Positions 1 through 10,512 of a DNA stretch of 11,789 nt are shown here, in pieces (within the stretch, counting starts at the first letter, position 1; every line of letters begins with the position of its first letter). The DNA is from Candidatus Heimdallarchaeota archaeon (GTDB taxonomy: Archaea; Asgardarchaeota; Heimdallarchaeia; Heimdallarchaeales; Heimdallarchaeaceae). The position numbers were made by a program, and so were the translations under genes. Below the pieces are notes generated by a model. That model saw only the letters and a program-made list of their open reading frames with translations, was not told where the DNA came from and made no database searches. The stretch covers positions 1 to 11,789 of the forward strand of contig DXJF01000055.1 in assembly GCA_019057375.1 (NCBI GenBank), read 5' to 3'.

Positions 1-60
1 TATAATCTAGAAGTTGATGAAGATAATTCTTATCTCGTTAATCGTGTTGCCGTTCATAAC
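1..60 (+). mobile_element. Intein C-terminal splicing region (blocks F and G); C-extein starts at Cys codon 61-63
   Basis: Translation [20 protein letters not shown]|C matches the intein block F (YxLxV...xY/F) and block G (N..vHN followed by C/S/T) pattern. It replaces the GIGPGSI expected before the IMPDH/GMPR catalytic Cys. Confidence 0.93.
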
Positions 61-591
61 TGCATCACCAGAATTGTTACTGGTAGTGGTGTTCCTCAAT
101 TAACTGCTATTATGGATTGTGCCAAAGTAGCTAAAGACTATGGTATCCCAATTATTGCTGATGGCGGTGTACGCAATTCAGGAGATCTTACAAAAGCTAT
201 CGCAGCAGGAGCTTCCACTGTCATGATTGGAGGTCTTTTTGCTGGAACAGAAGAGAGTCCCGGAATAACCATTTTACGCTCTGGAAGAAGCTATAAAGTC
301 GTTCGAGGAATGGCTAGTTTGGGAGCTACTTTAGGAAGAGAAGCCAGAGAGAAAAAAGGCTCTTTCGATGAGCTAGACATGGGGAGTGTAGTTCCTGAAG
401 GAGTAGAAGCTGTAGTACCTTATCGAGGATCTGCAGCTGATGTTCTTGAACAACTTGTTGGAGGACTAAGAAGTGGAATCTCCTACTGTGGTGCAACTAA
501 TCTTAAAGAGATGCAAAGTAATGCAGAATTTATCAAAATAACTGCTGCTGGACGTTCTGAGTCAGCTTCACATGATGTTGAGCGTATGTAA
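1..591 (+). CDS. guaB: IMP dehydrogenase / GMP reductase family protein, 5'-truncated by the window edge, intein-containing; may be a GMP reductase
   Basis: Frame 1 is open from base 1, upstream of the ORF-track Met at 112. After the intein end it reads [20 protein letters not shown], then [50 protein letters not shown]. These are hallmark IMPDH/GMPR motifs. Stop TAA at 589-591. Confidence 0.95.
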
Positions 592-658: not shown

Positions 659-2173
659 ATGTCTGAGTATAGAACAATAGCTATTCTTGTTTTTAGAATC
701 TTTAGAGGCAAATATCATTTTTATCTCGTTAGAAGAGCTATAAACGTACCAGCTGTGCCTTCCACATGGACACCTATTGGCTCTGTAATCACTGCTCAAG
801 ATTTTAGGGTTGCTGAGGAACTAGAGAAGAAGTATGGTGATATTTCAGATAATATGGCAGACAAAGTAACAGTATTAAGACTTCTTTTAGAAAGGGATTT
901 AATTCATGATACAGAATTGCAAAGTTCTGTACCTCTGTTTACAGAAGTTCGACAAAAAATCTTGAAAATGGATCCTGCTTATGTAACTACTTTCTTCAGT
1001 TCAATGATTCCTTGGGGAAGACAAAAAGCATATCTTAATGAAGATATCCTAGATTGTTACTACTACCTTTATATTGTTCCAACATCTTCAATTTTCAGAA
1101 AAGGAAAATTATCCCAGTATTCAGAATATATAAGTTCGAGTGATATAGTTTTGGAAGAAAGAAGCTGGTGGTTCAAATCAAGTAAACTTGTAAAAAAATA
1201 TAACAAGATTGAAGGTCTTTTCGATCCAATTGTTATGACTTTCATTTCTAAATTATACCATGAAAAGAAGAAAATTGTAGATGTTGCTAGAGAGTTGGAT
1301 AAAGAAACTATTGATACACAAATTATCAAATTAGGTTTGCTTCCGAAAATATTGAAGTTTGAGACTCCAGCTCCTACTCGAACTCCTTTTGATCTATGTA
1401 ATATCTATGTTGTTGGTAACGAACGACAATATATTATTGATCCTGGTTCAACTACTTCCAAAGCTATTACAGTTCTTGAAAAATATATTGAAGAGAATTT
1501 GGATAAAATTGATGGTATTCTTTTAACTAGTCATTTAGTTGATCATTGTAACCAAGCTCTCCAACTTAAGGAAAAATATGATATCCCATTATATGCTTCT
1601 GAAGAAACAGCAAAAGAATTAGTAGATGAGGGATTTGTTTTTAATTCGCATCTAAAGAAAGGAATGAAAATCTTTCTGGGAACATATGAACCTCTTGGAA
1701 TTAGAAAATGGGAACTTGAAGTTGTGGAACTTCCAGGATATACAAAAGGTCATTTGGGTTATTATGATCCCCGAGGAGTTTTGTTTTCAGGAAGTCTTCT
1801 TCATAAAGGAATTGTCAGTTCTATTGGTTCTTACGATAATGCTTATTCTGATTTCATTAGCAGCTTAAAGAAAATATCAAAATATAACTTAAAATACGCT
1901 CTTTCTGGTCATAGAGATATTATTTCAGATGTGAAACAAGCTATTAATTTTAATCTGAAGAATCTTAAAATGAATGAAGGATTCATCATACGCTTGTTAA
2001 AGGAAGGAAAATCAACTTTAGATGAACTTATTAACGCAGTTTTGAGAAATTCTGATTTAGAATGGAGAGATAGTGCAGTTAATATTGTACTTACTATTCT
2101 ATCAAAATTGACAAAGGAAAGTAAAATTAAAAAACGCGGTGAGGACTACTTTTGTGTAAATAGCACTAATTAG
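659..2173 (+). CDS. Nudix-like / metallo-beta-lactamase (LACTB2-like) / winged-helix fusion protein with degenerate catalytic motifs
   Basis: N-terminal YLVRR...WTPIGSV...D...LRLLLER resembles the NUDT19-type Nudix fold. The C-terminal half has MBL landmarks IIDPG, ILLTSHLVDH, PGYTKGH, FSGSLL and SGH. The final ~65 aa resemble the LACTB2-type WH domain. Confidence 0.8.
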   Translation: MSEYRTIAILVFRIFRGKYHFYLVRRAINVPAVPSTWTPIGSVITAQDFRVAEELEKKYGDISDNMADKVTVLRLLLERDLIHDTELQSSVPLFTEVRQKILKMDPAYVTTFFSSMIPWGRQKAYLNEDILDCYYYLYIVPTSSIFRKGKLSQYSEYISSSDIVLEERSWWFKSSKLVKKYNKIEGLFDPIVMTFISKLYHEKKKIVDVARELDKETIDTQIIKLGLLPKILKFETPAPTRTPFDLCNIYVVGNERQYIIDPGSTTSKAITVLEKYIEENLDKIDGILLTSHLVDHCNQALQLKEKYDIPLYASEETAKELVDEGFVFNSHLKKGMKIFLGTYEPLGIRKWELEVVELPGYTKGHLGYYDPRGVLFSGSLLHKGIVSSIGSYDNAYSDFISSLKKISKYNLKYALSGHRDIISDVKQAINFNLKNLKMNEGFIIRLLKEGKSTLDELINAVLRNSDLEWRDSAVNIVLTILSKLTKESKIKKRGEDYFCVNSTN

Positions 2174-7725: not shown

Positions 7726-8646
7726 ATGCCTCTGGTTGAATGTGTACCAAATTTCAGCGAAGGAAGAAATCAAGAGATTGTCGACCAAATCGTTGATGCC
7801 ATCCAAAAGGGTGGAAAAATCATTATGTTAGATATCAGAATGGATCCTGATCATAATAGAGCCGTTATTTCATTTATTGGTGAACCTGAAGAATGTGTTA
7901 ATGCTGCATTTGCAGGATGCAAGAAGGCTACTGAGTTAATAGATATGAATGAGCATAAAGGAGAACACAATAGATTTGGTTCTACAGATGTTATCCCCTT
8001 AATTCCAGTCACTGATATAACTCTAGAAGAATGTGCCGAACTAGCTCAAAAACTAGGAGAAAAAATTGCTAAAGAACTGAAAATACCTGTTTATTTCTAT
8101 GGAGCCGCTGCAAAAGATCCAGCAAGAGAAGTACTTCAGGATTATAGAACAAAATCATTTCAATATGAGCAGCTGAAAGAAGAAATAGCTACAAATGATG
8201 ACTACATTCCAGATGTTGGAGCTAAAAAGACACATCCCAAAGCTGGAGCAGTAAATATTGGAGCTAGAAACTTCTTAGTTGCTTACAATATCTATCTAGA
8301 TACCGATGACATGGAAGTTGCTAAGAAAATAGCTAGAAATATTCGTCATTCTGGTGGAGGATTAAGATATATCCAAGCTGGAGCAATGAATATTGAGGAA
8401 CGTGGAGTCGTACAAGTCAGTATGAATATAACCGATTTCAAAGGTACTCCTTTACATAGGGTGTTAGAAATGGTGAAGACAGAAGCAAAAAGATTCGGTG
8501 TTAATGTTACTGAATCAGAAGTTTACGGAATGCTTCCTCTTGATGCTCTTTTAGAAGCTGCGGAATTCTACTTACGATTAAACAATTTTGATAGAGATCA
8601 AATAATCGAAAAAAGAGTTTTTTCAAAAGGTGAGAAAAATGGGTGA
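7726..8646 (+). CDS. ftcd: Glutamate formimidoyltransferase (FTCD N-terminal half)
   Basis: LVECVPNFSEGR, DPDHNR, GEHNRFGSTDVIPLIP, GARNFLVAYNI and VQVSMNITDF are formiminotransferase signatures. Confidence 0.95.
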   Translation: MPLVECVPNFSEGRNQEIVDQIVDAIQKGGKIIMLDIRMDPDHNRAVISFIGEPEECVNAAFAGCKKATELIDMNEHKGEHNRFGSTDVIPLIPVTDITLEECAELAQKLGEKIAKELKIPVYFYGAAAKDPAREVLQDYRTKSFQYEQLKEEIATNDDYIPDVGAKKTHPKAGAVNIGARNFLVAYNIYLDTDDMEVAKKIARNIRHSGGGLRYIQAGAMNIEERGVVQVSMNITDFKGTPLHRVLEMVKTEAKRFGVNVTESEVYGMLPLDALLEAAEFYLRLNNFDRDQIIEKRVFSKGEKNG

Positions 8647-9277
8647 AATACTAATAGATAAAGTAGTAACAGATTTTTTGGATGAACTAGCTAGTGATGC
8701 ACCTGCACCTGGTGGTGGTGCTGCAGCTTGTATTGCAGGAGCCATGGGTGCGGCATTAGGTAGCATGGTTGCTAGACTTACAATAGGTAAGGAAGACTAT
8801 AAAGATGTTGAAAAATTTTTCAAGAAAAAATTGAAAAGAACTGAAGAGCTTCGCATTAAACTTACTGAGTTAACAGATAAGGATGCCAATGCTTTTAGTG
8901 GTGTAATTAAAGCATTTGGAATGCCTAAAGATACAGAAGAAGAGAAAGCAGCTCGTTCAGCGAAAATCTTAGCAGAGTACAAAGTAGCTGCAGAAGTACC
9001 TTTAGACACATGTATAGCCTGCAAGGAAGTAATTGATCTTCATTTAGAAATGGGAACTAAAGGCAATAAGCAAGCCCTTTCCGATATTGCAGTAGGTGCT
9101 CTCTGTGCTCTAACTGGTCTCAAGTCAGCAATGCATAATGTGGAAATTAATCTCGGTTGGATAAAAAACAAAGATGCTGAATATGCAAAAAAAATGTTTT
9201 CGCAGCTTGAAAAATTAGTTGAAGGCGTTGAAGAAAAAGTCAATATATTAGATGAAGAGATAAGAGCAACATTCTAA
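8639..9277 (+). CDS. Formiminotetrahydrofolate cyclodeaminase / methenyl-THF cyclohydrolase family protein (FTCD C-terminal half)
   Basis: DFLDELASDAPAPGGGAAA, MVARLTIGK, DANAF, VPL, GNKQALSD and NVEINL. ATG 8639 overlaps the upstream TGA and has GGTGA at 8629-8633. Confidence 0.93.
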   Translation: MGEILIDKVVTDFLDELASDAPAPGGGAAACIAGAMGAALGSMVARLTIGKEDYKDVEKFFKKKLKRTEELRIKLTELTDKDANAFSGVIKAFGMPKDTEEEKAARSAKILAEYKVAAEVPLDTCIACKEVIDLHLEMGTKGNKQALSDIAVGALCALTGLKSAMHNVEINLGWIKNKDAEYAKKMFSQLEKLVEGVEEKVNILDEEIRATF

Positions 9278-9926: not shown

Positions 9927-9951
9927 TCAAATATCTGAGATAGAGTTGAAT

Positions 9952-10512
9952 ATGACAGGCCAATTACCCGATTCTTTTCTTTATGAGGATGAAGTCTATT
10001 CCCTTATTAGTATAGCTGATGAAGAACCTTTTACACCTTTAGATTATGATATTATACCACAAATGGCTTCAACAGCTTGTTGGAGAGGATTTGTTTTATA
10101 TTACAAATTAGATAATAATTCTCTGATTCTTCAGGATATGCAGCTTAATACCAAAGAAGCTAAGGAAATTAACAATATTAAACCTACAAAGACTAAAGAT
10201 ATGTTCAGATTTCACTACCAAGACTTGAACCTAAAACTAGATTATTCTGGTAAGTTATTGATTGCTCGTGACTTCATTGATGAGATGTATGTACATATGG
10301 GTTTTCAGAGACCTATTGCCTTTAGAAAAGTAGTTGAATTGGATTTCAAGAATGGTGAGCTTCTTTCAGTGAATGATTTGTCAGAACAAATGGAAAATAG
10401 AAGAAATAAGGCTCCTGCTGACGGTGCTAGACCTAAAACTATGAAAGACAAAGATGTGAAAAATTGGATAAAAGACACTTTTTCTCGAAAACACAACAAA
10501 GAAGAAAAATAA
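9952..10512 (+). CDS. Conserved hypothetical protein with STACWRG motif
   Basis: 187-aa ORF with host-like codon usage. MTGQLPD...STACWRGF resembles a widespread uncharacterised family (recognised from memory). TTG 9946 is an alternative start. Confidence 0.8.
   Translation: MTGQLPDSFLYEDEVYSLISIADEEPFTPLDYDIIPQMASTACWRGFVLYYKLDNNSLILQDMQLNTKEAKEINNIKPTKTKDMFRFHYQDLNLKLDYSGKLLIARDFIDEMYVHMGFQRPIAFRKVVELDFKNGELLSVNDLSEQMENRRNKAPADGARPKTMKDKDVKNWIKDTFSRKHNKEEK

Follow-up and report, generated by a model that had tools for sequence, protein, structure and literature searches.

The gene at the start of this contig encodes an IMP dehydrogenase (IMPDH) that is interrupted, immediately before its catalytic cysteine, by an intein. 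We conclude, with a probability of roughly 90% for the two statements taken jointly, that the element is a canonical class-1 intein, in which a two-motif LAGLIDADG homing endonuclease is inserted into a HINT splicing domain, and that it is a selfish mobile element with no regulatory role in its host. The insertion site, GPGSI/C, is a second, distinct IMPDH insertion site that recurs in public genomes; we found no description of it in the literature.

The end of an intein fused to IMPDH

The window analysed here is the whole of contig C155 (11,789 nt), beginning at contig base 1. It belongs to an assembly of 3.47 Mb in 159 contigs, with 33% GC and 89% completeness. Bases 1–591, read in frame 1, encode 20 residues ending NRVAVHN, then 176 IMPDH residues, with a stop codon at 589–591. 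The features on this contig, and on a second contig that carries the upstream half of the gene, are as follows.

Window 1–60, plus strand: intein tail, the last 20 residues (block F/G, ending His-Asn), from TIGR01443 and alignment with 20 homologues
Window 61–63, plus strand: TGC codon for a Cys that serves both as the +1 nucleophile of the intein and as the catalytic residue of IMPDH, from alignment to known IMPDHs
Window 61–591, plus strand: IMPDH C-extein, 176 aa plus stop, from PF00478 positions 180–345 (221 bits)
Window 334–369, plus strand: IMPDH flap segment, a feature of the host enzyme outside the intein, from an extein alignment of 42 sequences
C135:1297–2193, minus strand: N-extein, 299 aa including two CBS domains, from PF00478 positions 1–181 (256 bits) and CBS (78 bits)
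C135:1–1296, minus strand: first 432 intein residues (locus L002), from TIGR01445 and LAGLIDADG_3

At window 55–63 the His-Asn that closes the intein is followed directly by Cys (VAVHN-C). The model for the intein C-terminal splicing region, TIGR01443, matches residues 1–21 at 18.2 bits (curated cutoff 15.6), and the Pfam IMPDH match covers window residues 21–191. An earlier, sequence-only reading of this DNA had described an intein end fused to an IMPDH C-extein in frame 1, and both models pass at exactly that arrangement. It had also pointed out that the list of open reading frames hides the intein, as it does: the closed ORF begins at Met 112, and the frame from base 1 is open at its 5ʹ end. 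The same block F/G is present in the 20 homologues that reach this region of the alignment. Block F of the window's intein (VYNLEV) has Asn at a position that is Asp in many inteins, and this Asn is invariant across the whole allele family.

The rest of the window consists of ordinary genes, including those for a ferredoxin-domain protein, a DUF72 protein, an MFS transporter, a class-III aminotransferase, and GNAT and NUDIX proteins. Two adjacent genes with a 17-base overlap (window 7726–9277) encode a formiminotransferase (FTCD_N and FTCD) and a cyclodeaminase (FTCD_C); the pair adjoins the class-III aminotransferase and MFS transporter genes, and looks ordinary. A 504-aa protein encoded at window 659–2173 has a metallo-beta-lactamase fold in its C-terminal half only, its first ~240 residues being without a Pfam match, and a 188-aa ORF at window 9946–10512 has no Pfam match at all. 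The genome as a whole is rich in inteins, with seven N-terminal blocks above cutoff including that of the IMPDH gene. Three of the other six are in one 2107-aa ORF, two are in a 1433-aa ORF, and one is on C123; the corresponding loci in this genome (G000) are C126:8516–11725, C13:18379–20334 and C123:342–584.

The upstream half of the gene

Contig C135 carries an open frame of 731 aa (P0002; C135:1–2193, minus strand) in which an N-extein ending GVGPGSI is followed by intein Cys1, block B (TPEH) and two LAGLIDADG motifs. The frame ends KEAVVY at the last base of C135 and is open off the contig end. The sequence-only reading had anticipated GPGSI upstream, and then a block A with Cys or Ser as its first residue; both are found on C135, the first residue being Cys, together with a LAGLIDADG domain. 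The model for the intein N-terminal block, TIGR01445, scores 25.9 bits there (cutoff 24.5), so the two intein models that the earlier reading had named as checks both exceed their curated cutoffs.

Once C135 is reverse-complemented, its end overlaps the start of C155 by three bases, TAT. When joined, the two contigs encode a protein of 926 aa, with an intein of 451 aa and exteins totalling 475 aa. This is the length of the nearest homologues (P0003, P0005 and P0008), and the sequence across the junction is the same as in those homologues. From the overlap and the exact fit to homologues in length and sequence, we take C135 and C155 to carry one gene that was cut by the assembler. The break falls inside block F, 19–20 residues before the end of the intein. 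There is no repeat at the break: a blastn search with 300 bases from each side against the whole genome gave only chance matches of at most 33 bases.

An apparently intact homing intein

We judged whether the intein is intact by aligning 20 inteins that share this allele. Cys1, directly after GPGSI, is invariant in the 20 homologues, as are T64 and H67 of the block B motif Thr-x-x-His (TPEH, intein residues 64–67); with the terminal His-Asn included, all of the splicing residues are invariant or nearly so. LAGLIDADG_3 (PF14528) matches in two stretches with 42 bits. Both LAGLIDADG motifs, GYFLAEGY and GAFYGDGS, keep their acidic residues, E227 and D327, which are nearly invariant in the alignment. 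Two relatives (P0020 and P0024) have lost one or both of the endonuclease acidic residues, as would be expected of copies in the decaying phase of the homing cycle. Judged by its sequence, the copy described here is apparently intact, and is predicted to be active in both splicing and DNA cleavage. Exact excision of the intein gives a 475-aa protein reading GVGPGSICITRIV (GVGPGSI-CITRIV), like the intein-free alleles of the same genus. Base composition (intein 31% GC, exteins 38%, genome 33%; GC3 0.22 versus 0.19) is uninformative about recent acquisition.

We propose that splicing would follow the standard order of steps. After translation, Cys1 would undergo an N-S acyl shift, and the N-extein would be handed to the side-chain thiol of Cys+1, which is later to serve in catalysis. 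The intein would then be freed as its terminal Asn cyclises, and an S-N shift would create a normal peptide bond, yielding the 475-aa IMPDH. At the DNA level, the endonuclease would cut intein-free guaB alleles and the intein would be copied in. Such homing would explain a spread that is patchy and independent of the host. Since the active-site loop is split, the precursor cannot be active. Since the site is invariant, any imprecise loss would destroy the enzyme, which would explain why the intein persists.

The host enzyme

The sequence-only reading had proposed that the +1 nucleophile of the intein is the catalytic Cys of the enzyme. Indeed, the counterparts of the +1 Cys in an alignment are residue 331 of human IMPDH2 and the Cys of the CTTR motif in the IMPDHs of T. 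maritima and B. anthracis. It is on this Cys, numbered Cys319 in T. foetus, that the covalent intermediate E-XMP* is formed (PMC2525682). Window 61–72 reads C-I-T-R, which places a Thr two residues after the catalytic Cys; the roles of both residues are given in the same study (PMC2525682).

The earlier reading had suggested looking for intein-less alleles among orthologues, and 13 were found in the same genus or order. All have an uninterrupted GSIC at the site, in the form G(V/I)G(P/A/S)GSIC(I/V)TR, and those of the same genus are 474–475 aa long. Together, their sequence and length indicate that precise excision restores a normal enzyme. The IMPDH equivalog model TIGR01302 scores 351 and 184 bits on the two halves of the gene, and 554 bits on an intein-free orthologue with a 96%-identical extein (cutoff 481.5). 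We also considered GMP reductase as the host, and rejected it: all GMPR and GuaB1 models score below their curated cutoffs for the intein-free orthologue. No second IMPDH was found in the 89%-complete genome, where the sole other PF00478 match is a weak, partial one of 26 bits on C153 that is not an IMPDH. GMP synthase, which consumes the product of IMPDH, is encoded on C57.

The flap of the host enzyme may be unusual across the order. Its segment (P0001 residues 112–123; also L093–L110) belongs to enzymes that retain the catalytic Cys, the Thr of C-I-T, and the Glu of a PEG motif. The canonical flap has an Arg-Tyr dyad, Arg418/Tyr419 in T. foetus. In the extein alignment of 42 sequences, the flaps of all 19 enzymes from the order share the window's segment and are without an R-Y pair, and the DPANN and bacterial carriers all have (D/E)RY. 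The flap of the order is 3 residues longer, and one of its two Arg residues might still be equivalent to the Arg of the dyad. The IMPDHs of this order may work without the Arg-Tyr dyad, or the alignment may be shifted in the longer flap. If the alignment is right, the missing (D/E)-R-Y motif means that these enzymes would need to activate water by the Thr/Glu route, which has been proposed as ancestral (PMC2525682).

Distribution of the allele

A large protein collection contains 23 IMPDH clusters with an intein, all at one site, and their inteins are 31–69% identical to that of the window. The junctions are shared by every cluster that covers them (21 of 21 for the N-junction and 20 of 20 for the C-junction). 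The named relatives in this collection come from Heimdallarchaeota MAGs and are labelled plainly as "IMP dehydrogenase".

We surveyed 47 genomes from 13 genera of the order, counting as carriers those in which the IMPDH match is split at profile positions 181/180. IMPDH is present in 37 genomes, seven of which have the intein. Four carriers are in the window's genus (this genome, G015, G017 and G028) and three are in other genera (G004, G005 and G036). The gene is uninterrupted in most genomes of the same genus, and in most of the order. Complete versions of the intein-bearing gene, in one ORF, are present in sister genomes. Assembly breaks inside this intein also occur in further MAGs of the order (G036, G004 and G015, the last on its own contig C155, L044). 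The G015 bin includes three alleles (one with the intein, one without it and one that is partial), suggesting that the populations sampled were mixed at this locus.

A scan of species-representative genomes with an intein-only alignment found 33 IMPDH loci, one of them on a complete chromosome. All that reach the N-junction have GPG(S/A/T)I followed by C, and all end HN followed by C(T/I/V)TR. Given these loci and the clusters of the protein collection, the junctions in this gene are not a product of chance. The archaeal hosts are from the Heimdall group and from DPANN (Iainarchaeia). The bacterial loci are in MAGs labelled as Pyrinomonadaceae/Blastocatellia, Chloroflexia/Herpetosiphonaceae/Oscillochloris, Bacillota/Clostridia, Polyangiaceae, Gracilibacteria and Poribacteria, labels that may be wrong for single contigs. 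In a tree of exteins, the rows labelled Acidobacteriota, Chloroflexota and Bacillota are in separate, well-supported clades. A search of phage genomes for a possible vector gave only remote relatives (26–31% identity) in RNR, terminase and other genes, and none in IMPDH.

More distant relatives of the intein (~25% identity; L046–L059) are in other host genes of DPANN archaea, Omnitrophota and Patescibacteria. One such site reads PAH then C at its start and HN then CWTPWF at its end; the site in RadA reads HFRSEF then C, and HN then CGRGTLADRQQK.

A mobile element or a switch

What is the relationship between the intein and its host gene? The Heimdall enzymes group in a single clade of the extein tree, in which the five carriers are interspersed with 14 non-carriers. 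Three carriers and three non-carriers share one tight clade (SH-aLRT 95). The exteins of this genome and G017 are 96.4% identical at the amino acid level and their inteins are 67.8% identical; at four-fold degenerate third positions, identity is 69% for the extein and 45% for the intein. Hence, these two inteins are older than the split between their hosts and were acquired separately. A different pattern is seen for G017 and the intein-bearing allele of G015 (G015a), in which extein and intein are each 95.6% identical at the amino acid level, and identity at four-fold third positions is 72% for the extein and 95% for the intein. The intein is closer than the extein at synonymous sites, indicating that it was exchanged after the hosts diverged. 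Over a greater distance, Heimdall and Iainarchaeia inteins are 60% identical and the exteins 52%, and all archaeal inteins are in one clade (SH-aLRT 100). Together, the patchy, host-independent spread and the patterns of identity are signatures of a homing element, and argue against a conserved function in the host.

An alternative explanation is that the host has recruited the intein as a conditional switch: splicing, and with it the activity of IMPDH and the supply of GTP, would be gated by redox state or metals, for instance by way of a reversible disulfide between Cys1 and Cys+1. Both nucleophile positions at the splice junctions are indeed Cys, and a precursor with a split catalytic loop must be inactive. 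Moreover, conditional splicing is documented for some other inteins in the accessible text of three papers (PMC5790916, PMC4513877, PMC11409957). Nonetheless, we consider this explanation unlikely. The intein is absent from sister species with exteins 95–96% identical (G019, G024 and G025), and the gene is uninterrupted in most of the genus and order; intein lineages have been swapped independently of the host gene; the endonuclease has been kept, as expected of a mobile element, and a switch would have no need of it; and we found no feature that is specific for sensing. A more specific version of this idea is that anaerobic Asgard archaea use the intein as a redox-gated, post-translational switch for making guanine nucleotides, and have kept it where halting GTP production during oxidative episodes is of benefit; we regard this version as a long shot. 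The sequence-only reading had left the choice between a switch and a parasite at an invariant site undecided. The parasite is favoured by our data, and the redox- or metal-sensitive switch, which is unsupported, is disfavoured by the patchiness of the intein among near-identical hosts.

It is very improbable that the gene is truly in two loci, as a naturally split intein or a fractured gene like that of IMPDH-1, with the halves joined by trans-splicing. The halves are on different contigs, and fractured IMPDH genes with split inteins provide a precedent (PMC2677866). However, no stop codon interrupts the N half before it reaches the contig end, the C half lacks a start codon and its frame is already open at base 1, and the joined product fits the 926-aa homologues, all of which point to one gene and not a naturally split intein. 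Furthermore, the break is in block F, 19–20 residues from the end of the intein, whereas natural splits are at the position of the endonuclease between the two halves. The overlapping ends reproduce the contiguous homologues residue for residue, and sister genomes encode the complete gene as one ORF. It is just as improbable that the insertion is decayed and unable to splice, leaving guaB effectively a pseudogene and the organism dependent on salvage: endonuclease motifs have decayed in some relatives, but here the frame is open over all 926 codons, no splicing residue and neither acidic residue of the endonuclease has been lost, the exteins are 96% identical to those of intein-free orthologues with mostly synonymous change, and GMP synthase is encoded in the genome.

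Significance of the intein

The element has consequences for how this gene is recognised. It is hidden by gene callers and by the names given in databases, and in this genome the gene is also cut across two contigs. Hence, metabolic reconstructions from Asgard genomes could record guaB as absent or as a fragment. Hosts of the allele include Asgard and DPANN archaea and members of at least six bacterial phyla. Sequence signatures show that the intein moved recently between Heimdall-group species, a clear-cut case of the homing cycle in nature, among archaea that have not been cultivated. This family of contiguous inteins with Cys1 and Cys+1 has many natural variants, and could be mined for tools. 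Our understanding of how inteins work is unchanged by the finding.

Comparison with known inteins

In the literature that could be searched for inteins in IMPDH/GuaB or in Asgard archaea and Heimdallarchaeota, we found only work on split IMPDH-1 and no paper describing the GPGSI/C allele, and IMPDH is not mentioned in the main text of the survey by Novikova in 2016 (PMC4760082). The sequence-only reading had considered inteins uncommon in small-molecule metabolic enzymes. This is at odds with the same survey, which ranks nucleotide metabolism second among functional classes in its wealth of inteins (PMC4760082).

The first report of inteins in IMPDH came from ocean (GOS) metagenomes and concerned split inteins with free-standing endonuclease genes (Dassa et al. 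2009, PMC2677866), and these inteins have since been used as tools (PMC7090010, PMC11168065). The IMPDH-1 and IMPDH-2 inteins resemble the one described here in their host enzyme, in their insertion into the same active-site loop, in having Cys1, and in keeping the enzyme inactive until it is spliced. However, they are split, with a free-standing gene for a Vsr-like endonuclease between the halves, whereas the window's intein is contiguous with an internal LAGLIDADG endonuclease. The native IMPDH-1 junction is GGG/SIC, with Ser as the +1 residue, two residues upstream of the GPGSI/C junction, in which the catalytic Cys is +1. The earlier reading had placed the IMPDH-1 site correctly at two residues upstream, and the site and type of the window's intein are both different.

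Inteins placed directly before a catalytic Cys are a known pattern. A similar logic applies to the thiyl-radical site of RNR and to UDP-glucose dehydrogenase, where the +1 residue of the intein is likewise an invariant nucleophile needed for catalysis. The intein site in NrdA (RNR) is directly N-terminal to the thiyl-radical Cys (PMC2677866), and UDP-glucose dehydrogenase is among the archaeal intein hosts in the survey (PMC4760082). These inteins are in other host enzymes, and their insertion sites are unrelated to that of IMPDH.

The closest relative with a solved structure is PI-PkoII, intein-2 of the Thermococcus kodakarensis DNA polymerase (2CW7; E = 3.8e-20). Further sequence-profile matches to solved structures are the archaeal VMA inteins 7QSU and 7QSS, and PI-SceI (E = 1e-11 and 4e-9). 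Their hosts, DNA polymerase and V-ATPase, differ from that of the IMPDH intein, to which PI-PkoII and the VMA inteins are only remotely similar in sequence. Nonetheless, PI-PkoII, the VMA inteins, PI-SceI and the IMPDH intein are alike in architecture: each has a class-1 HINT domain with an inserted two-motif LAGLIDADG endonuclease.
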